Assembly (NCBI GenBank): GCA_963705255.1
Contig: OY970061.1
Location: 1,472,001 to 1,536,000, forward strand
Reading direction: 5' to 3'
DNA from: an uncultured Methanoregulaceae archaeon
GTDB taxonomy: Archaea > Halobacteriota > Methanomicrobia > Methanomicrobiales > Methanospirillaceae
Length of the DNA stretch: 64,000 bases
The position numbers were made by a program, and so were the translations under genes. Of the stretch, positions 33,185 to 43,439 are shown piece by piece (the first letter of the stretch is position 1; each line of letters opens with the position of its first letter). Below the pieces are notes generated by a model. The model saw nothing but the letters and a program-made list of their open reading frames with translations. It was not told the DNA's origin and made no database searches.

Positions 33185-34102
33185 TTATTCATATTCGATC
33201 GTTGCCGGCGGTTTTGCCGTGATGTCATACACCACTCTCGCAACACTTGGGATGTCGGACGTGATCCTCGACCCGATTCTCACCAGCTGGTCGAACGGGA
33301 TCTCCAGCGGGTCCGCGGTCATGCCGTCCCGTGAATTCACCGCACGGATCGCGATGATCCACCCGTGGATCCGGTTGTCCCCCTTGACTCCGGTACCGAG
33401 CCCGAGGAGGGCCGCAAAGCACTGCCACGGGCGGTACTTCTCGACGAGTTCGTCCTCGACGATCCAGTTGGCTTCCCGGATGACTGCAACATTTTCCTCC
33501 GTCACTTCCCCGAGCACCCGTACCGCAAGCCCGGGCCCCGGGAACGGCATCCGGTGCTGGATCTCCTTTGGCAGGCCAAGGGCCCCGGCCACTTCCCGCA
33601 CTTCGTCCTTGTACAGGTCCCGGATCGGCTCAATCACCTTCGTGAACTCCATGTGGAGCGGCATCCCGCCGACATTGTGGTGGCTCTTGATCCCGCCTTC
33701 GCTCTCGATTCGGTCCGGGTAGATGGTCCCCTGCAGCAGGCACGTTGCCCCCTGCTTCCGGGCTTCCCGCTCAAAGACGCGGATGAACCGTTCCCCGATC
33801 GCCTTCCTCTTGGCTTCGGGATCGGTAATTCCCCGGAGGGCTTCAAGGAACTCGTCGCCCGCATCCACGACCTGCAGGTGAATGGCATCGAAGATCGTCC
33901 GGATCCGTTCCGTCTCGCCTTTGCGCATCAGGCCGGTATCGATATAGATCGGGATGAGACGGTCCCCGATTGCCCGGGCCGCAAGCGCCGCACAGACCGA
34001 GCTGTCGACACCGCCGGACAAGGCCATGACGACCCTGTCATCTCCGGCAGCTGCCATGATCTCGTCGATGGATTCCCGGATAAATTTCTCCGTATTGACC
34101 AT
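33185..34102 (-). CDS. guaA: GMP synthase, ATP-pyrophosphatase subunit B
   Basis: [37 protein letters not shown]; no GATase domain. Confidence 0.95.
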
Positions 34103-34112
34103 GGATCCCTCT

Positions 34113-35690
34113 CTATTTCGTCCTCTGGTTCGCCCGGCACGCTTCCACGAAACCGAGGTACGGGGGACGGCTGGGTCGGGCGGGACTTGAACTCGGGGTG
34201 GAACTGGGTGGCAAAGTAGAACGGGTGGCCGGGCAGCTCCATACACTCCATCCGGTTCCGGTTGGTAGCCGAGAAGACAAGCCCGGCCTTCTCAAGCCGG
34301 GCGATGTACTCCGGGTTCACCTCATACCGGTGGCGGTGCCGTTCGGTGATCTGGCGTTCGTTGTATAATTTGAGCGCCAGGGTTTTTTCCCGCATATCGG
34401 CAGTATAGTTGCCAAGCCGCATCGTCCCGCCGAGTTCGTGGAGCCCTTCCTGTTCCGGCAGGAGGGCGATGACGTGAGAACCGTCGCCGAATTCTTCGCT
34501 GGTCGCATCCGCAATACCTGCCTTGTTCCGGGCATATTCGATGGTTGCGAGCTGGAACCCGAGACAGAGCCCGAGGAACGGGACATTGTTCTCGCGGGCA
34601 AACCGGATCGCCTCGATCTTTCCCTCGATGCCCCGCTTGCCGAACCCCCCGGGGATCAGGATGCCGTCATAATCCTTGAGCTGGCACCGCTCGTAGCGTT
34701 CCGCATCCAGCCACGCGATCTTCACTTCCGTGGAAAGCGCCCTCCCGGCATGTTTGAGGGCCTCCTTGATACTGATGTACACGTCCTCGATGCCGTACTT
34801 GCTGACGATCGCAACCGTGACACGGTTGGTGTATCCTTGGTCACCAGCCGGTACCAGTTGGTATCGGCCTCCTTTTTGTCCAGCCCGAGGTGGAGGGTCA
34901 GCACATCGGCAATGCCCTCTTTCTCCATCTCCATGGGGACTGCATAGGTATCCGGGACGGTTGCGGCAGAGATAACCGCACTCTGGGGGAGATCGCAGAA
35001 CGCCGAGATCTTTCTTTTCGTGCCTGCCCCGATAGGGTTCTCGCTTCGGCCGACGATGATGTCAGCATGCAGGCCCAGCTCCCGTAACGCCTTCACTGAA
35101 TGCTGGGTCGGCTTGGTCTTCATGTCCCCCATCGTATCTTCAGGGATAAGGGTGACATGGATCAGGACATAGTCGTGGGCGGGCAATTCGCCCCGCATCT
35201 GGCGGATGGCCTCAAGGAACGGCATGCTCTCTATGTCCCCCACCGTGCCGCCGACCTCGACGAGACAGACGTCCGCCCTGGTCCCGTCCGGGAATTCCTC
35301 TTCTGCAGCCTGCTGGATGCACTTCTTGATCTGGTCGGTGATGTGGGGGATGATCTGCACCGTTTCTCCGAGGAAATCGCCGCGGCGCTCCTGGTCGATG
35401 ACCGTGCGGTACACTTTCCCGGTGGTGATATTATGGGAGGCAGTGAGCTCGATGTCGAGGAACCGTTCATAGTTGCCGAGGTCGAGGTCGACTTCGCTCC
35501 CGTCCTTGAGTACGAACACCTCGCCGTGCTGTGCCGGGTTCATGGTGCCCGCATCGATATTGAGGTACGGATCGATCTTGACTGCCGTGACGCGGTAGCC
35601 CCTGTTCTTCAGGATGCGCCCAACGGACGCTGCAGTGATGCCCTTTCCAAGACCACTCATCACACCGCCGGTAATAATGATGTATTTCAC
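34113..35690 (-). CDS. pyrG: CTP synthase, frameshifts near 34835 and 34165
   Basis: [49 protein letters not shown]. Confidence 0.95.
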
Positions 35691-35874
35691 AGTGAACTCC
35701 CCGATTGCTTTACAATTTGCTCACAATACCTATTAGTGTTATCTTATCGCGGTGAAAAACGATTTTCGGCAAGATTCCGGCAGGATACGTTCCGCAGACC
35801 TTCGCGTTTTTGCATTCCCGGCACGGGTGCTTCTGAAGCAACATTAATTTATGGAAAAACCCAAACCGGTAACC

Positions 35875-36579
35875 ATGAAATTCAGACAGATTGCCGGCAT
35901 TCTGGCAATAGTACTATTTTTCTGTCTTGCATACCCGGTTGCCGCGGCGACAGCTACGGACAACGCGACAGACTTCTACAACAAGGGGGTAACGCTGCTC
36001 TCATCGGGGGATTACGGGCAGGCGATTACCTTTTTCGACCAGGCCCTTGCGTCGAACACGAGCTCGATCAAAGTAACAGGTGGCCTCCTCTATACGTACC
36101 AGGGCAAGTCCTATGCCCAGATCCAGATGGGGATGTACAATGATTCGCTCCTGACCCTTGATCAGGGGCTCGCACTCTATCCCAATGACAGCATGCTCTG
36201 GAACAACAAGGGCTACGCACTCTTCCTGCTCGGCAAAAACCAGGCTGCCCTCACGGCCTATGACCAGGCAATCAGCCTCGATCCGAATGATACGAACGCC
36301 CTGATCAACAGAGGAAATGTCCTCTCCGAAATGGGACGTTCCCAAGAGGCAGTTGATTCGTTTACTGCAGCAAACCAGACCGATCCGGGCAATTCCGCCG
36401 CTATGGCCGGCCTGGTCAAGGCCCAACCGGCTGCTGCCGGCTCAATGCATACAACGGTGATCGTCGTGATCGTTGTCCTGGTTGTCGCTGCAGTCGGAGT
36501 TGTCTGGTACGTGAAGTATTACCAACCCGGGAGAACAACGTCGTCAGAAAAGAAAGAGAAAGGAAAGAAGAAAGAATAA
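35875..36579 (+). CDS. Extracellular TPR protein with signal peptide and C-terminal membrane anchor
   Basis: Signal peptide; YNKG/WNNKG/INRG TPR repeats; C-terminal TM followed by a basic tail. Confidence 0.88.
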   Translation: MKFRQIAGILAIVLFFCLAYPVAAATATDNATDFYNKGVTLLSSGDYGQAITFFDQALASNTSSIKVTGGLLYTYQGKSYAQIQMGMYNDSLLTLDQGLALYPNDSMLWNNKGYALFLLGKNQAALTAYDQAISLDPNDTNALINRGNVLSEMGRSQEAVDSFTAANQTDPGNSAAMAGLVKAQPAAAGSMHTTVIVVIVVLVVAAVGVVWYVKYYQPGRTTSSEKKEKGKKKE

Positions 36580-36606
36580 GTGAAAAAGAATAAATTTTTC
36601 GTATTT

Positions 36607-37029
36607 TTACGGATTTGTTGTAACAGCGAATGCCGCAGATGTCCGGGAGAGCAGGGTCTTTTTATCGTCGTCCGCCCGGACTTCACCTTCGGTGAATGCG
36701 ACACGGCGCCCTTTCCGGATCACCCTCCCTTCGGCAAAAATCACCCCGTCCCGGGCCCCCCTGACAAAACTCGTTGATTCCGAGATGGTTGCAATTCCTT
36801 CCTGTTCCGACAGGAGCGGATAGATGGCCAGTGCCATAGCCTCGTCGGCAATAGCCGCGAGCATCCCCCCCTGCAGCCAGCCGACCCCGTTGTGCATGTC
36901 GGGGCGGACCTGCATTTTCAGCAGGGATTTACCCGGCTCCACGCTCACCACTTCAATCCCCATAAGGCAAAAAAAAGGGTTTGCATATTTCCCGTCTTTT
37001 TTGATCTTGTCCAGATATGACATGGTCAT
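36607..37029 (-). CDS. PaaI family thioesterase (hotdog fold)
   Basis: HNGVGWLQGG..IADEAM; IRKGRRVAF. Confidence 0.88.
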   Translation of the reverse strand: MTMSYLDKIKKDGKYANPFFCLMGIEVVSVEPGKSLLKMQVRPDMHNGVGWLQGGMLAAIADEAMALAIYPLLSEQEGIATISESTSFVRGARDGVIFAEGRVIRKGRRVAFTEGEVRADDDKKTLLSRTSAAFAVTTNP

Positions 37030-37225
37030 TCTAGGAGGTTTCTGGTCTGAGAGGATTAAGATTGTCCCTGTGCCCGGACCAGGCCCGGGAATCTCTCCGA
37101 AAAAGAGGTCGAGCGGTTCCTGCCGGTAAAAAGATACCAACATATTTTATCACACGCAATGATAGTATGATAAAGCACCCGGCATATTCCTGTGTGCATG
37201 TGAACTTCCCCCGGGGGTTTCTTTC

Positions 37226-37993
37226 ATGACCGATAAAGAGACGGTATCAATCTCGACAGATCCTGTATTTTTAAAAGAACTGTCAGAGTACCTGGAAGTC
37301 CTGTCGAACCCGATCCGGTTGAAGATACTCAAAGTCATTGAGAAACAGCCAAAAGAGATCAGCGAGATCGCTTCGAGTATCACCACAAGTTACGCCAACA
37401 CGAAGAAACACATAGACCAGCTCGTCCGGATCGGTCTCGTGAAAAAAGAGGCGGGATTCGGGAGGGAGACGGCAAAGGGTATCCACCCGGTCTGGAAATT
37501 TTCCCTCGTCGATGGCGGACTCGAGATGCTCATCAGGAACCTGGGCGTTTTTTCGAGTGTCAACATCCCCATGGGGTATGGGGATATCCATACGCGTATT
37601 GAACCGGTACGAAAAGCAATTCTCCTGGAATCGGGGCAGAATTTTCCGGCCCTCCATCTGGTGGAGGGTGACCAGGCAGGACGGACATTTCTGATCAGGA
37701 AGGACCGGGTCAGCATCGGGAGGTTCGACCCGGATTTCCCGGGCCATGCCAGGGAGGGGGACATCGTCCTGCCTGAGAATTACGTGGTGGTGACAAGGAT
37801 AACCAAGCCCCACGCGATTATCTCCCGGACGGGCAAGGAATGGTTCATCGAGGACCGTGGGAGCTCAAGCGGGACCTATGTCAACGCTGAGCTGATCGCA
37901 CCGATGTGCAGGACCGGGCTGAAAAACGGGGATGTCATCGATCTCGCGATTGGTGACAGTTCAGCACGGTTCCTCTTCGTCGTAAACGAGTGA
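37226..37993 (+). CDS. ArsR-type HTH plus FHA domain protein
   Basis: LSNPIRLKIL..SEIA..KHIDQL..GLV wHTH; FHA motifs IGR..TR...H..IEDRGSSSGTYVN..L.NGDVI. Confidence 0.88.
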   Translation: MTDKETVSISTDPVFLKELSEYLEVLSNPIRLKILKVIEKQPKEISEIASSITTSYANTKKHIDQLVRIGLVKKEAGFGRETAKGIHPVWKFSLVDGGLEMLIRNLGVFSSVNIPMGYGDIHTRIEPVRKAILLESGQNFPALHLVEGDQAGRTFLIRKDRVSIGRFDPDFPGHAREGDIVLPENYVVVTRITKPHAIISRTGKEWFIEDRGSSSGTYVNAELIAPMCRTGLKNGDVIDLAIGDSSARFLFVVNE

Positions 37994-37999
37994 AGTCTG

Positions 38000-40003
38000 A
38001 TGGCGGACCAGGGAGCTTCCGGAGTTCGGCGGCTGGCAATGGTGAACAGGTATTCCACCCTGGCAGCCGTTTCCATCCTGGTTATCCTTCTGGCAGCATC
38101 GCCGGTCTCTGCCAAAGTTTTCATATATGACGGGAAAAGCAGTGCCGGTTCCATCCAGGACACGATAAACAGTTCAAGTAACGGTGACAGTATCTTTCTT
38201 GCGGGTGGGAAATATTACGAAAACGTGGTGATCGACCGCCCGATCGTCTTCAGTGCGCTGGATACCGGAAACCCGCCCGAAATTATCGCGGGGGGACCGG
38301 GTGCAGGGATCGTTCTTGCAGCTGACGGAATTACCCTGAACGCGGTAAATCTTTCGGGGAATGCCCAGTACGGGCTTCTCGTCCAGTCGAACAACAACCG
38401 GATCAGTGCGATAACTATCGACGGGTTTGATCACGGCATGGGCCTGAGAACAGCATCAAACAACATCATATCAGGCAACACGTTCGTGAACAACAGTATC
38501 GGCGTTGAGGTCGACCGTTTTTCCCATACCAATACGTTCTTTCTGAACCGGTTCGACAATCCCGATGAAGTCGCCAGCCAGTCAAACGATAATGCATGGT
38601 TCTCCGGCCGCCAGGATTACCAGTACCTCGGTCGCGATATTACCGGCCCGATCGGGAATTCATGGGCGGGCTACACAGGTGCCGACAGACTATGGTGATG
38701 GGATCGGGGATACGCCTTACACGATAAACGGCTTCCCTGTCTCGCTCGGGGAAACACCAATCGTCGACCGCGCCCCCCTTGTGAGCGGGCCGGAATCCTA
38801 TACGCTCGTGAGATCCGCAGGCCTGGTAAACATAACAGGAATGGACCAGCTTGTCAAACTGCCGGAAACTTCGGCGGCTGGACAGCCGGGTACCCAGCAA
38901 CTCCCGGGGGTTCCGGTGCAGGCAGAATATGGTAATTTGCCCCAGACCGGGCAGGCGAATACCGCCGGGCCTCCCTCCCCGCTTCTCGTCACGTTGATCC
39001 AGTTCTGGTGGATCATCCCGGTTGCCATCATCCTGTCAGCGGGAGCGGGTATCTGGTTTGAACGGACCCGAAAGAGGGGAGTTCCTGCCGGGAATGCAGC
39101 TATGCGCCGGGCATGTCACCACGGAACGTTACTCTCGTCAAAAAACCCGGTCCCGTCAGGGACGAGAACGCCGGTTCCCCCGAACCCTATTATGCAGTCC
39201 GTCTCCCGCCCCAGCTGGAGAAAAAATATCCCGGGGCAGAATATATGGGCGAGGGCGGGGTCGGCAGGGTATTCCGGGCATGGGATCCGGAAGAGCGGAG
39301 GGAGATCGCGATTAAGGTCCCGATCCGGTTTGACGAGGTGACCGGCACGCAGTTTACCAGGGAACTCCACATCTGGCAGGGGCTCCACCACCCTAACATC
39401 GTCGAGATATACGCAGCAAACGTCTTTCCCATGCCGTACATCGAGATGGAGTATATCGGGTCGTCCCTGGCAACCATGAAATTTCCTCTCGGGATTAACC
39501 GGGCGGCCGCAATCATTTCTTGGGTTGCCGAAGGGTTGCGGTATGCTCACGAACGCGGGATCGTCCACCGTGATATCAAGCCGGAGAATATTCTGATAAC
39601 ACCTGAAGGTATTCCGAAGATCACGGACTGGGGACTTGCAAAGGCCCTCGCGGACACCAGACAGACGGGAGCTATCAGTTTTTCCATGGATTATGCCGCG
39701 CCGGAACAGCTAGCACCGAATATCTATGGGGATTCCGGCCAATGGACAGACATTTACCAGCTCGGGGTCCTTTTCTACGAGATGGTCTATGGCAAGGTAC
39801 CTTTCAGAGGCGATGGCATGGGTGAGGTGACGCAGTCAATCCTTCATGAAGAGCCGGTGTTCCCGGAACTGAACGACAGGAATTCCAGATCCATCCTCGA
39901 CATTATCAAAAAATGCCTACAGAAGAAACCCCAGGAACGGTATACTTCGGTTGCAGAACTTATTTCCGATCTCAACAGCCTGGATCTGTCTCAACAGTCC
40001 TGA
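38000..40003 (+). CDS. Receptor-like Ser/Thr protein kinase (NosD/beta-helix ectodomain, TM, Hanks kinase), frameshifts near 38685 and 39105
   Basis: Signal peptide, SIQDTIN..GD.I, beta-helix repeats, GN.W..GDGIGDTPY, one TM, then GEGGVG, AIK, HRDIKPEN, DWG, APE, DIYQLG. Confidence 0.82.
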
Positions 40004-40521
40004 TCGTTCGTGACAGAAAACCCGGGATTCATCAGGCAATTTCTGATCCCTCCCCCACTTTTTTTTTACAAGTTGGTGGCAGTTACCTGGATATATCCGG
40101 TCAGTTGAAAATAATGAGGTGCCGGTTGAACATGCTCAATGAACTGGCTGATAATCCCGATTCCTGCAATATTCTCTAAAATCTACTTACTGTCCGGTCA
40201 TTTTTTCGAGGACCTGGAAAACCCGCGTGGTTTACGTGAATATTCCGGAAACAGGAAGATGGTCTAACTGTAGAAAGACTCTGTTCACCGGTATCCTGAC
40301 AGGGATGGCATCTTTGCATGTCCAAAAAAATGGATGTTCCCCGGACGGATACGGAGGATACGTCAGGCAGGGTCTGCGGGGCTGCATGTTCTGTGGTTCG
40401 GTTTTTGACAGGGGCCAAAAACCACCAGGGGGAGAAAAATCTCTCACACCCGCCCTCTCGATACAAACGGGTATATCGTTACCGGTTTGGCACTTGCGTT
40501 CTCTCTTTCATTACCCGGGCG

Positions 40522-40902
40522 CTACGAGCCCGATGCGGGTGTCCCGGATGGGGGTGTACCGGATGGGGGTGTACCGTTCATCATTGCACCGCCGGGAGGT
40601 GTACCGGATGGTTTCGTGCCGGATGGCGGTGTACCGGACGGTGCTGTCCCGTTCATCATTGCACCACCGGGAGGTGTACCGGATGGGGCAGACTGGTTAA
40701 CCTGGGGCCCGTTTCCGCTTTTCACTGGCTGGTCGGCAGATTGCGTTGACGTTGAACCTGACTGATCCTGCACTGCCGTGGATGTCGGATTTCCAGAGGA
40801 CTGGGTAGATGAACTTCCGGCGTCCTGCGTGCAACCCGCTGTTACCAGTGCTGTCACAAGGATTGCTGATGCAATCAACATGAGAATGCTGCTCTTTTTC
40901 AT
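40522..40902 (-). CDS. Small lipoprotein-like protein with a GTPPS repeat tail
   Basis: MKK, hydrophobic stretch, TAGC lipobox; 15-bp repeat units and a 75-bp duplication. Confidence 0.75.
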   Translation of the reverse strand: MKKSSILMLIASAILVTALVTAGCTQDAGSSSTQSSGNPTSTAVQDQSGSTSTQSADQPVKSGNGPQVNQSAPSGTPPGGAMMNGTAPSGTPPSGTKPSGTPPGGAMMNGTPPSGTPPSGTPASGS

Positions 40903-42228
40903 GGGATATTTCTCCTGAAATACCGGGGTACATACCATTTTTATGTACTACCGGATAGGTTTTTAACGGCCCGAGACCGGGTCGTTGCCTGGAGAACCGT
41001 ATGCTTTCGCAGCCAGCCGCATGATCCATTCTTATCGAGAGGAGCATGGGATGAGAACTCCAGGCATTCCTGACTTTTTCACTATCATCCTTTGTTGAAT
41101 GATCTCCCTTTGGGGATCATCCTCCATCACAATTCTTTCGGGCAGTATTATATTCAAAGCATGAAAGCAGTGATATAATGGAAAAAAGCCGTCATTCATT
41201 CAACCGGCAGGTGAATATTATCAATAGACTGACATCCAGGCCAAACCGTACCCGCATGAAACCGGTATCATGCAACATTCTGGTTGTATCAGACGCATTG
41301 CCCCGTTTTTACCGTTCGCGAAGAAATGTTTTAAAAAAGAGAGGGTGATGCCAGGGTGGGAGGGGATTGATGTTCCCTGTCCAATCCGGTTGGCGGGCTG
41401 CGCGTTGTGGGTGACGCCACAATCCCATTTCCGGTTGGAGATCCCGGATTTGAGAGCCGGTCTCCCATGCTGCAGGGATGTTTATCATAGAACCTCCGCA
41501 ACGGTGTCCCTGGCTTTCGGGATTCCTGGTAATTCTTGTCTTTGCATTCATCGCGTCCCGCTGATTCCGTACATATCCCCCGGGTCCGGGTGCTGATCTC
41601 CCTGTCCCGGAGGTCCCCACAAAATCATGCTGAGTTCACCTGCGATAAGGACCTGCAATAATCCCTGGCCCATCGCTGGAGACCCCAGTCATGGTAAAGG
41701 TCTTCGGTATCCCTGTAGCATCACGTCCTGGCAAGCACCTCCTTTTTGTAAAACGGTAATCTCATACAGGTATATATTCGAAGTATGAAGTGAGTGATAT
41801 AATGAATTGTGACGAGGAATAATTGAACCAGACAGGTATACATAACCGGACGTGAGGGAATTTCATCCCGGGTGACAGTCAATGGAAAAACATGCATGCT
41901 GACCATAAGACCCGGTGGTGATAAACCTGCAACCGTCTGGCCAGTCTTATTGGCTTCCTTAATTGAGAACGTATTCAGGATGGGAAACTGTCGACAGGAG
42001 TTCCGGGTGAGCATCCCCTGCGCTATTCTCATTCATTCACACGCCTTGTGCCGTCTTCGGATCACCTGTCGCAACAATACCGTTTTTTACCAGGGTTATC
42101 CTCCAGATGACCGCCAGCCGGTTTATACTGTTCCCTGCATCCGATAGCCTGCCAATAAAAATGATCAGCCCCTCTGAACCGCCACTTATCTGACGGAAAG
42201 AGGTACAGGTGTCACGATGCTCTTTCTT

Positions 42229-43439
42229 TTATTCGCTCCTCAGGGCGTCTATCGGGTCCATATTCGATGCCCTCCAGGCAGGGTAGAGCCCTGAAATGAT
42301 ACAGACAACGATACCAATAAGCACACCCGCGGGGATGTAGACGATGCTATCCGGCAGGAAGAAATACTCAGTCGTACCGATCATGTAACTTACCACGGAA
42401 TACCCGATGACAAGACTGCCGATTCCTCCCAGACCGGCACCGATGATGCCAAGAATGAATGCCTCGTACAGGAACATCCGGCGTACTCCCCGGTTTCTGT
42501 CCCGATGGAGAGCAGGATCCCGATCTCCTGCACCCGCTCAATGACCGACATCATCATTACGTTGAAGATGCTCGTGGCAGCGACCAGCAGCGAGATGCCA
42601 CCAATCGCAAGAATGAACGTGGTCATCGTGCTCAGGGTCGATGTGATGCTGGACAACTGGGTACTTGCATCCGAGACCCGCACAACGGGGGTTTTTGCAT
42701 TGGTGTTGAGCTTCGCGGTGATCAGCTCTTCGGTACCTGTTATGTTATCGACGTTTTTCACGATCACATTTACCTGGGGGTACTCATCTTTCCCGCCGTA
42801 CTCTTTTACATACCAATCGTCGGAGACAACGATGGCATTGTCGGTTCTGACACTATCCGCCGCCTGTCCCCGTTCCTTGAGAATCCCGACGATCCTGACC
42901 TCCGAGCGGGATCCTGATGTACTGGATCCTACCTTGATCCTGCTCCCGAGTTTGAGGTTAAAATTGGTGGCGATCGTGGACCCCACAAGAGCATCATTTG
43001 CGCCAACAATGTTTGTCCCGTTCTCAATCGTAAGGAACTCGGTAATATGATCAGGATCAATCCCATATATCATGCCCCTGCCGGGAATAGAACTCAACGT
43101 GAATTCCGTATTTGTCGAATAAACGGGGATTATATTGCTGGCATTTGATCCCGCAGCCTGCTTGATTTTAAGAAGCTGTGTCTTGGTTATAACCGATGAT
43201 GCAGTGGAGGAAGTGGTACTGGATCCCGGCGGACCCATCCTGACAGCATCCGGCGTGATAACAACAGTATCTGCTCCAGCAGAGAGCTGATCTTTTGTCT
43301 CCAGCTGCATGTTGGTCCCGAGCATCCCCATCGTGGAGATGGCGATCACACCAATAACAATACCGATAGACGCCAAGATCGAACGCAGGTAATTCAGCCG
43401 GACACTTCTGACCGAGAGATCGAAGAAAATATCTCTCAT
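42229..43439 (-). CDS. ABC transporter permease (MacB/FtsX-like), frameshift near 42485
   Basis: RSILASIGIVIGV, ER.QEIG, FLYEA, YPAWRA..DPIDALR. Confidence 0.9.

Follow-up and report, generated by a model that had tools for sequence, protein, structure and literature searches.

The stretch of DNA analysed here (64,000 nt; hereafter the window) belongs to a methanogen of peat soil, a species of the genus Methanoregula, and carries, at 37226..37993 on the plus strand, an ORF for a 255-aa protein combining a winged helix-turn-helix (wHTH) and an FHA domain. The stop codon of this gene ends at 37993 in the ORF list, and the next ATG, located at 38000 in both the list and the sequence, leaves a gap of just 6 nt before a series of three overlapping ORFs on the same strand (38000-38698, 38565-39341 and 39113-40003), with ORFs 1 and 3 in the same frame. 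When the pieces are compared individually with Pfam, ORF 1 matches NosD (2.7e-15) and ORF 3 matches Pkinase (3.7e-46); ORF 2 has no Pfam family and carries a hydrophobic helix. The ORF list, the sequence and Pfam thus agree with the initial annotation, which had placed an ArsR-wHTH/FHA gene 6 bp upstream of three overlapping ORFs.

The three ORFs are best read as fragments of one receptor Ser/Thr kinase gene (38000..40003, plus strand), which comprises 667 codons once two indels are allowed for. The first frame break, at 38689 on the plus strand, is a surplus base in the window, with the switch of frame bracketed by tblastn at 38686-38694, and the second, between 39100 and 39101 of the same strand, is a single missing T, with the tblastn switch falling at 39077-39107. 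All six same-genus loci (6/6) have single ORFs of 652-672 aa that are collinear with all three pieces in tblastn, and the closest named record, L042, has a single ORF of 667 aa. The two single-base edits yield 667 codons without a stop, of which 646 positions (96.7%) are identical to the L042 ORF. Contigs of four sequencing runs (X1-X4) carry the same corrections: the base at 38689 is absent from those of X2, X3 and X4, with X1 lacking cover there, and the extra T behind 39100 is present in all four, the X1 contig piece at this site showing no difference besides the added T. Given the run contigs, the collinear orthologs and the 667-codon frame matching L042, the earlier suggestion that repair of two indels restores one kinase ORF proves correct. 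Since the near-identical X1 does not cover 38689, the case for this break rests on strains of about 97% identity together with L042; X1 is, moreover, not independent, because it may be the assembly's own source sample.

Assembly indels very probably account for both frame breaks, and the three-ORF appearance, judged jointly with the rest of the explanation developed below, is probably an assembly artefact concealing one kinase gene. The contrary scenario, in which both frameshifts are real mutations that have turned the kinase gene into a true pseudogene and left the regulator an orphan in a module now decaying in this strain, appears very unlikely to us. It draws on the presence of both breaks in the window as assembled, on the fact that 38689 is uncovered by any near-identical contig, and on the position of the breaks, neither of which lies within a long homopolymer, but it conflicts with the X1 contig, which is otherwise identical and has the T missing at 39100, as well as with the stop-free frame obtained by only two edits and the closeness of its product to that of L042. 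It also conflicts with the state of the assembly as a whole. A break at 34833 in the single-copy essential gene pyrG, near the pair, is repaired in contigs of all four runs, a gene for an FtsX-like permease and both paralogous pairs are split as well, and the assembly is 89.5% complete although it consists of one contig. Single-base indels are frequent in this assembly, and split genes elsewhere in it should therefore not be taken as pseudogenes.

The restored kinase begins with a hydrophobic segment (residues 12-44, 38033..38131, plus strand; Kyte-Doolittle windows above 1.6) that ends in VSA/KV and is predicted to be a signal peptide or an N-terminal anchor; AF2 models the N-terminus of L042 as a helix at residues 7-32. 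It is followed by a predicted extracellular right-handed beta-helix of the NosD-like type (residues about 40-272, 38117..38816, plus strand), recognized by the Pfam profile NosD (PF05048; 56.8 bits against a cut-off of 23.6, profile positions 83-212 of 212 covered) and by Beta_helix (PF13229; 28.2 bits), and modelled in L042 as a stack of short strands from residue 40 to residue 272, most of them with pLDDT values of 85-97. The match denotes membership of the fold only and not the copper-chaperone function of NosD, and a comparison of the ectodomain with the sequences of solved structures returned nothing at E <= 0.01. A disordered P/Q/G-rich stalk (residues 274-326 in the L042 model) leads to a single transmembrane (TM) helix and a basic stretch, ERTRKRG (38970..39077, plus strand), the hydropathy windows lying at residues 325-353 and the helices of the L042 model at 327-359. 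The cytoplasmic part terminates in a Hanks-type kinase domain (39239..39949, plus strand; PF00069, 158.1 bits against a cut-off of 31.7, profile positions 5-254 of 263), whose closest solved relatives are PknB (4.4e-39) and StkP (2.4e-37). Pfam, hydropathy and the L042 model together thus uphold the architecture proposed initially, i.e. a signal peptide, a NosD-like beta-helix, one TM segment and an intact Hanks kinase.

The kinase is predicted to be active, as the catalytic Lys and the HRD, DWG and APE motifs are conserved. G48/G49, K68, H152-R153-D154 and A195-P197-E198 are invariant in the 27 aligned partner kinases (27/27), as are the DWG positions; the DFG motif reads D-W-G in 63/64 partner kinases, with one gap; its Asp and Gly are kept, and the Trp in place of Phe counts against the explanation developed below. 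A Ser or Thr occupies the position aligned with the activation-loop Thr of PknB in 52/64. The linker between the membrane and the kinase domain, disordered at residues 361-399 of the L042 model, contains the juxtamembrane motif R-N-V-T-L-V (39122..39139, plus strand), the Thr of which is a candidate site of autophosphorylation and FHA docking. This Thr is found in 52/64 partner kinases, with V, I or L at position +1 in 49 and at +2 in 51. Docking of the FHA domain at this residue is uncertain because residue +3 is variable (K, D, F or N). A structure prediction for the complex of the cytoplasmic part of the kinase with the FHA domain scored 0.00 against a mark of 0.32, which we treat as evidence neither for nor against the interaction.

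According to Pfam and an AF2 model (mean pLDDT 78.5), the regulator (37226..37993, plus strand; 255 aa) consists of a disordered N-terminal tail, an ArsR-type wHTH, a helical linker and a C-terminal FHA domain, the FHA blocks being modelled with pLDDT values of 83-94 and residues 1-12 with values below 50. The wHTH (residues 26-74, 37301..37447, plus strand) is of the ArsR/SmtB type, as indicated by matches to HTH_20 (PF12840; 29.3 bits against a cut-off of 27, 8.3e-07) and HTH_5/ArsR (PF01022; 27.4 bits against a cut-off of 22, 3e-06), and the profile of the regulator family matches the solved ArsR-family regulator 2p4w (6.4e-04). The FHA domain (residues 164-240, 37715..37945, plus strand; PF00498, 43.1 bits against a cut-off of 20.7, 5.8e-11) retains the residues expected to bind phosphothreonine (pThr), at positions that we take to be equivalent to those of Rad53 FHA1 on the basis of an HMMER alignment and of the Rad53 residue numbering. 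Among 75 family members, G165 and R166 occur in all 75, T/S193 in 73 and H196 in 74, while S213 and S/T214 of the beta6-beta7 loop are kept in 75 and 71 and a second Asn, N220, in 73. The Asn contacting the ligand backbone (at the position of Rad53 N107) is absent, being replaced by Gly in 67/75 and by Ser in 7/75 members including the one in the window.

In Foldseek searches, the model of the regulator FHA domain matches solved FHA domains with target-normalised TM-scores of 0.74-0.88 and E about 1e-07, the best matches being those of DgcB, GarA, EmbR and ArnA; those at the top come from proteins whose FHA domain binds the protein's own N-terminal tail once this is phosphorylated. The tail of the present regulator carries the motif T6-[VI]-x-[IVL]-S-x-D-P (37241..37264, plus strand), a candidate phospho-acceptor for FHA docking, in which, among the 75 family members, T6 is present in 74, V, I or L at +1 in 73, I, V or L at +3 in 71 and P13 in 71. 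The Thr-x-x-[IVL] pattern resembles the tail of GarA, and by this analogy T6 may be a site of phosphorylation. A Pfam search of the regulator and of each of the three ORFs of the kinase gave no HisKA/HATPase or receiver family at E <= 0.01; judged from its sequence, the module is independent of His-Asp domains.

Upstream of the regulator lies a conserved promoter-proximal element of 43 nt (37135..37177, plus strand; 49-91 nt before the ATG), which combines a T-rich TATA-like core with a downstream block and is a candidate promoter plus operator. It is alignable in all 26 upstream regions of the ortholog group (26/26), and the flanks are not. An imperfect inverted repeat inside it (37146..37174), with arms of 10 nt at 37146-37155 and 37165-37174 that are 90% complementary and 9 nt apart, is a candidate site for the wHTH. 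A weight matrix of the element scores 70.4 here and at most 14.2 elsewhere in the 2.6-Mb genome; the regulon search with this matrix thus found no second site in the genome and, as the element lacks a second copy, no regulon is visible. The element may be just a promoter. A 5'-UTR hairpin considered downstream of it is unsupported, since RNAalifold predicted 0 pairs on the MAFFT alignment; single-sequence folds reached z below -1.5 in 8/24 cases, with the anchor misplaced in several rows. Some orthologs show, by eye, compensatory changes in the hairpin arms. Rfam gave no match at E <= 1 over 36900-40400.

Archaeal transcription is terminated by oligo-T tracts, and a run of nine T residues, read from the sequence at 40059..40067 on the plus strand, 56 nt past the stop codon of the kinase, is a candidate terminator. 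Because of this run, the 6-nt gap and the conserved upstream element, we regard a two-gene operon of regulator and kinase as a likely part of the overall explanation, with which it is graded jointly. The distance between the two genes varies in relatives from -182 to +394 nt, taking the first start codon, and in L042 it is also 6 nt.

The pairing of the two genes is conserved strictly. The initial annotation had named a survey of synteny as a check, and the survey bears the pairing out: in every locus that is informative, its downstream sequence extending for 3 kb or more (65/65), the related HTH-FHA gene is followed immediately, on the same strand, by a kinase gene, and the 11 kinase-less loci are all cut within 698 nt. 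The regulator family is present in 52/67 sampled genomes of Methanomicrobiales and in 1/333 outside the order. Pair copy number ranges from one to four per genome across the order; the present genome has three such pairs, its 3/3 FHA matches adjoining three of its four strongest kinase matches. The identity groups of the regulator and of the kinase coincide. Genomes of the order without the regulator also lack this kinase type in 8/10 cases; the two others each carry four such kinases, indicating that kinases of this type also work with other partners. The ectodomains vary across loci, with PEGA or no such domain in the paralogs.

A PP2C phosphatase gene adjoins the pair on the same strand in eight loci; three PP2C genes occur in the present genome, none adjacent to any of its three pairs. 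Adjacency, the matching identity groups, the co-occurrence and the adjacent PP2C genes support, on sequence grounds, the view that the two proteins are a cognate pair, which again seems probable to us within the joint assessment of the whole. The divergent gene for a PaaI thioesterase, proposed earlier as a candidate target, fared differently and is rejected: besides the window, it adjoins the pair in just 1/80 related loci, namely L042. The common divergent neighbour in other Methanoregula is a PMT_2 glycosyltransferase gene (18/31 loci), and tblastn at 1e-10 detected no homologs of PMT_2 or GtrA in the genome to which the window belongs.

The principle of a Hanks kinase acting with an FHA-domain regulator is already known from PknH-EmbR and PknB-GarA of Mycobacterium and from ST1565-ST0829 and ArnC-ArnA of Sulfolobales, and the present pair is a real, conserved and uncharacterised variant of it. 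As in PknH-EmbR of Mycobacterium tuberculosis, a TM Hanks kinase with an extracellular sensor is matched with a DNA-binding protein bearing a C-terminal FHA domain, and EmbR (chain 2ff4_B) is among the fold matches of the regulator model (7.7e-07). EmbR is phosphorylated by PknH via its FHA domain, according to work cited in PMC2877116. The mycobacterial system differs in its bacterial host, its sensor domain and the make-up of EmbR, in which an OmpR-type wHTH is joined to BTAD in place of the ArsR-type wHTH seen here, and the present genes are adjacent in every informative locus. The N-terminal tail, which is disordered and has an invariant Thr with an aliphatic residue at +3, recalls the PknB-GarA/OdhI systems of Actinobacteria and DgcB of Bdellovibrio, and the best fold matches include the DgcB tail complex, GarA with PknB (6i2p) and OdhI (target-normalised TM-scores 0.81-0.88). 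The targets of GarA and OdhI, however, are enzymes, and DgcB itself acts as a diguanylate cyclase, whereas the output domain here is a wHTH and its tail would be phosphorylated by analogy.

Among archaea, ST1565-ST0829 of Sulfolobus tokodaii and ArnC/ArnD-ArnA/ArnB of S. acidocaldarius likewise combine a Hanks kinase with an FHA transcription regulator, and a review describes archaeal Hanks kinases as phosphorylating FHA-domain regulators of archaellum genes (PMC5007285). The FHA domain of ArnA (5a8i) is a fold match of the regulator model (5.0e-06). ArnA and ST0829, in contrast to the present regulator with its wHTH, carry a zinc finger, and their kinases are encoded away from them rather than adjacently; ArnC and ArnD, whose entry 'No' in a table of the same review we read as meaning without a membrane domain, belong with the other components to Thermoproteota, not to methanogens, and ArnA acts with the vWA protein ArnB. 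The PASTA-type kinases PrkC/StkP of Firmicutes have the same layout as the present kinase, with the sensor outside the cell, a single TM helix, a disordered stretch next to the membrane and a kinase domain of the PknB type, and two papers report that juxtamembrane phosphorylation is functionally important in kinases of this type (10.1101/2025.11.01.686061, PMC12077195). The PASTA repeats of those kinases are nevertheless replaced here by a NosD-like beta-helix, or by PEGA or nothing in the paralogs, and the present kinase has a dedicated adjacent FHA-wHTH partner.

Taken together, the data fit a scenario in which an operon encodes a single receptor kinase and a DNA-binding regulator linked by a phospho-relay, and we consider this explanation as a whole rather more probable than its competitors combined; the pair would then probably transfer a signal from the cell surface to genes. 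The ligand of the beta-helix would come from the surface or the environment and would most likely be a glycan; the glycan idea is drawn from the name of the family and from a PMT_2/GtrA neighbour absent from this genome. The kinase would autophosphorylate in its activation loop and at the conserved juxtamembrane Thr, and the FHA domain of the regulator might dock on pThr of the kinase. The regulator, presumably a dimer-type ArsR wHTH protein, would in turn be phosphorylated by the kinase, the Thr6 tail being the best candidate site, and its pThr tail could be bound, as happens in GarA, OdhI and DgcB, by the FHA domain of the same chain or of the other subunit. Reading of the tail would alter DNA binding at the operon's own promoter element and at other targets, so that the FHA protein may both bind the phosphorylated kinase and control transcription, and a PP2C phosphatase, unlinked in this genome and adjacent to the pair in other genera, would reset the system. 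Across Methanomicrobiales, the system could be roughly a Ser/Thr counterpart of a two-component system with exchangeable sensor domains. The fullest version of this idea, an order-specific modular Ser/Thr system with an exchangeable ectodomain (NosD, PEGA or none), a Thr-tail FHA switch, a PP2C reset and a beta-helix reporting on surface glycans, is put forward only tentatively.

The absence of a second copy of the promoter element and the presence of such kinases in 2/10 regulator-less genomes would also fit a role of the HTH-FHA protein as a local regulator or scaffold, either an autorepressor or an FHA adaptor tuning the activity or localisation of the kinase, rather than as the signal output. 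The main kinase substrates would then lie elsewhere, as they do for PknB and StkP, among proteins of metabolism or of the envelope, and bacterial Hanks kinases are described as pleiotropic in PMC4601284. We find this unlikely, as the 65/65 adjacency and the co-duplication of the pair speak against it, and the conserved wHTH together with the invariant Thr6 tail points to a regulated DNA-binding output. The replacement of the canonical backbone-contacting Asn by Gly or Ser raises another issue, namely whether the FHA domain reads some other phosphoprotein or acts phospho-independently, adjacency then reflecting co-expression only. Phospho-independent FHA interactions do exist, e.g. that of GarA with its enzyme targets, but 73-75 of the 75 members retain the Arg, Ser/Thr and His that contact the phosphate, PP2C genes adjoin the pair in the eight loci mentioned, and all three FHA domains of the genome adjoin kinases, which makes this possibility improbable.

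If the relay from receptor kinase to DNA-binding regulator proves true, methanogens would gain their first defined Ser/Thr pathway leading from the surface to DNA. Hardly any work exists on Ser/Thr signalling in this group: for Ser/Thr/Tyr phosphorylation in methanogens, the accessible text of a 2016 review (PMC5007285) names a single study, and the literature we searched contained no characterised FHA-kinase pair from a methanogen, in keeping with the initial annotation, which knew of no such example. Conservation of the module extends over an order that is the dominant producer of methane in peat and freshwater sediment. With just two proteins, the pair would link the cell surface to DNA in a simple and testable way, and it presents concrete targets for mutation, namely the promoter element of 43 nt and, in the proteins, T6, R166, T193 and the juxtamembrane Thr. 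Relatives of the regulator are already present in public databases under the names 'FHA domain-containing protein' or 'ArsR family regulator'.

The regulator gene of the window (37226-37993, + strand) encodes a 255-aa protein that combines an ArsR-type winged HTH at residues 26-74 (Pfam HTH_20, 8.3e-07; HTH_5, 3e-06) with an FHA domain at residues 164-240 (Pfam, 5.8e-11). As described in the initial annotation, it lies 6 bp before three overlapping ORFs, its stop codon ending at 37993 and the next ATG being at 38000. The first ORF (38000-38698, + strand) matches the Pfam families NosD (2.7e-15) and Beta_helix, the second (38565-39341, + strand) has no Pfam family and holds the sole strongly hydrophobic internal stretch, and the third (39113-40003, + strand), which shares its frame with the first, carries the kinase domain (Pkinase, 3.7e-46).

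These three pieces very probably constitute a single kinase gene. The gene downstream of the regulator ortholog is one ORF of 652-672 aa in all six same-genus loci, and the six kinase proteins cover the three pieces in order in tblastn searches, which place the frame switches at 38686-38694 and 39077-39107. Contigs of four public sequencing runs (X1-X4) were compared with the window over positions 34600-40200; X2, X3 and X4 come from separate studies and differ from the window in about 2-3% of bases. These three have one base fewer at 38689, where X1 has no cover, the evidence at this site coming from close strains only. Behind 39100, an extra T is present in contigs of all four runs, including an X1 piece otherwise identical to the window; since X1 could be the very sample that was assembled, it points to an assembly error rather than to independent biology. 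The two single-base changes yield 667 codons without a stop (38000-40003), and the repaired kinase shares 646 identical positions with its counterpart in L042, the closest named record, where the gene is a single 667-aa ORF. The run contigs and the single-ORF orthologs thus bear out the earlier proposal that one kinase ORF emerges when two indels are repaired, and the broken look of the gene is an artefact.

The window's only copy of pyrG (CTP synthase; 33928-35690, - strand) is split into two frames at 34833, with profile positions 3-283 and 288-519 falling on separate frames, and an extra C behind 34833 in contigs of all four runs restores the frame. This break is an assembly indel and serves as a warning for every split gene of the genome, which is assembled into one contig and yet is only 89.5% complete. 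Both paralogous pairs of this genome are also split. An FtsX-like ABC permease (42229-43439, - strand) is spread over two overlapping ORFs (349 and 82 aa); that of the same-genus relative L036 is one 407-aa ORF, and the split in the window is probably another indel. Further 1-base and 6-base indels relative to the run contigs occur at 35695, 35771, 35946 and 36529-36603. The one at 35771 is common to an X1 contig; the others are found in X2 and X3 only (36603 also in X4) and may represent strain differences.

The pairing of regulator and kinase, proposed initially from this one locus, proved to be conserved across the order. We examined 80 related loci, and in all 65 with at least 3 kb of sequence downstream of the regulator gene a kinase gene follows directly on the same strand. 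Eleven loci show no kinase match, and all of these are cut within 698 nt. One ORF holds the kinase match in 65 of the 69 loci that have one. In the window's genome, all three FHA matches adjoin three of the four strongest kinase matches. Regulator and kinase identities sort into matching groups, indicating that the pair was duplicated as a unit, and the sensor domains vary by paralog group (a NosD beta-helix, PEGA, or a short domain that matches no family). Among ten regulator-less genomes of the order, each at least 96% complete, this kinase type is also absent from eight, and the remaining two have four such kinases each, in other architectures; the regulator therefore needs the kinase, but the kinase does not need the regulator. 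A PP2C phosphatase gene adjoins the pair on the same strand in eight loci of other genera, directly before the regulator in six and after the kinase in two; of the three PP2C genes in the window's genome, none adjoins any of its three pairs. The module is genuine: a strongly conserved pair specific to the order, to which some genera add PP2C as a third member, and it is likely that regulator and kinase form a cognate signalling pair.

The second pair of the genome (contig C1, 1335118-1337945, - strand) comprises an HTH-FHA gene of 261 aa and, behind it, two ORFs, one for a beta-helix and the next for a TM-kinase, which lie in different frames, abut at one base and look like a split receptor kinase of the same kind. 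In the third pair (2371148-2373186, + strand) the HTH-FHA gene is split between 2371702 and 2371704, and the 455-aa kinase has two hydrophobic segments and no beta-helix. PP2C matches also stand beside kinase matches without an FHA gene at 632809-634415 (- strand), where a 327-aa frame contains the genome's strongest Pkinase match, and at 257186-258800 (+ strand), where a 756-aa frame gives a weak kinase-like match.

Among named records, Methanoregula MAGs are closest, and more distant members of the regulator family occur in Methanolinea, Methanoculleus, Methanogenium and Methanomicrobium mobile. In a first draw weighted towards relatives, 35 of 41 genomes (the window's included) encode the family; in an even sample of the phylum, its profile matches 52 of 67 genomes of the order and one of 333 outside it, and none of nine genomes of one family of the order does so. 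Copy number is 1-4 per genome. The lone match outside the order (G399:C186:669-1403) lies near a contig start in a genome of another family (220 contigs, 90% complete) and could reflect either contamination during binning or a transfer. Among control genomes, FHA was detected in Sulfolobus acidocaldarius and not found in Methanocaldococcus, Haloferax or Methanosarcina.

The protein parts of the pair look functional. All 27 aligned partner kinases keep the Lys, HRD and APE without variation, and the DFG position reads DWG in 63 of 64; among solved structures, PknB (4.4e-39) and StkP are the nearest relatives. A Ser/Thr aligns with the second activation-loop Thr of PknB in 52 of 64 partners, and a juxtamembrane Thr in the motif R-N-x-T-[VIL]-[VI], within a disordered linker, is found in 52 of 64, spread over all groups. 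In the AF2 model of the L042 kinase (mean pLDDT 76.8), an N-terminal helix is followed by a beta-helix (40-272), then by a disordered stalk and a TM helix (327-359), and a disordered linker leads on to the kinase domain (404-664). Regulator FHA residues are likewise kept (GR and S213 in 75 of 75 members, [ST]-x-x-H in 73-74, N220 in 73), the position of Rad53 N107 being Gly or Ser instead of Asn. The regulator model (mean pLDDT 78.5; FHA part 83-94) matches FHA domains of DgcB, GarA (including the PknB-GarA complex 6i2p), OdhI, EmbR and ArnA. Its disordered residues 1-12 include T6, kept in 74 of 75 members, with V/I/L at +1 in 73 and I/V/L at +3 in 71; the self-binding phospho-tails of GarA, OdhI and DgcB, the best fold matches of the regulator's FHA, show this pattern. 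A switch acting through the Thr6 tail is a tentative proposal, less likely than not.

The module is a variant of an already known kind of system. Passages of a 2016 review (PMC5007285) describe ST1565-ST0829 and ArnA/B-ArnC/D in Sulfolobales and mention only one study of Ser/Thr/Tyr phosphorylation in methanogens by that date. In keeping with the initial statement that no characterised methanogen example was known, the literature searched yielded no methanogen work on either an ArsR-FHA regulator or an FHA-kinase pair, and public annotation lists the regulator family under generic names only. Mhun_1501, an FHA protein of Methanospirillum hungatei and a candidate family member, is named as differentially abundant in one proteome paper.

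Upstream of the pair lie a TPR-repeat protein gene (35851-36579, + strand; N-terminal signal-like segment, C-terminal hydrophobic segment, Lys/Glu-rich tail) and a PaaI-type thioesterase gene (36607-37143, - strand; 4HBT, 6.5e-12), which adjoin the pair only in the window and L042, i.e. in one of the 80 loci. A divergent PMT_2/YkcB-type glycosyltransferase gene (757 aa) precedes the regulator in 18 of the 31 ortholog-group loci with at least 2.5 kb upstream (also in four with shorter flanks), and in 13 loci it is followed by a GtrA-like gene; tblastn found neither gene in the window's genome. The glycosyltransferase may be the ancestral neighbour, replaced in the window by the thioesterase and TPR genes. 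Together with the carbohydrate-type beta-helix, these neighbours offer only a hint of a link with surface glycosylation, and glycan binding by the kinase sensor is a tentative suggestion. The convergent gene at 40522-40938 (- strand), conserved beside the kinase gene in 31 of 39 ortholog-group loci, encodes a small Pro/Thr-rich lipoprotein-like product, for which no Pfam family was found; it has a signal peptide and a lipobox-like LVTAGC as well as repeats of the GTPPSGT type.

The output of the pair is somewhat more probably transcriptional than otherwise. Upstream of the regulator, a 43-nt block (37135-37177), unique within the genome, is alignable in all 26 upstream regions of the ortholog group, its flanks not being so. 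Within this block lie a TATA-like core rich in T and an imperfect inverted repeat. In a second paralog group, a different conserved block is found about 55-95 nt upstream of the regulator gene; there a T-run leads into an ACAAC..ACACTAC-like stretch, and layout and distance are similar to those of the window's block. We read such blocks as promoters with a possible operator for a putative binder. Just downstream of the window's block (37176-37200), several orthologs could form a short hairpin with species-variable arms, a candidate that RNAalifold and shuffling tests did not support. Most orthologs have a ribosome-binding motif of the GGGTG type ahead of the ATG, and a T9 run lies downstream of the kinase gene.
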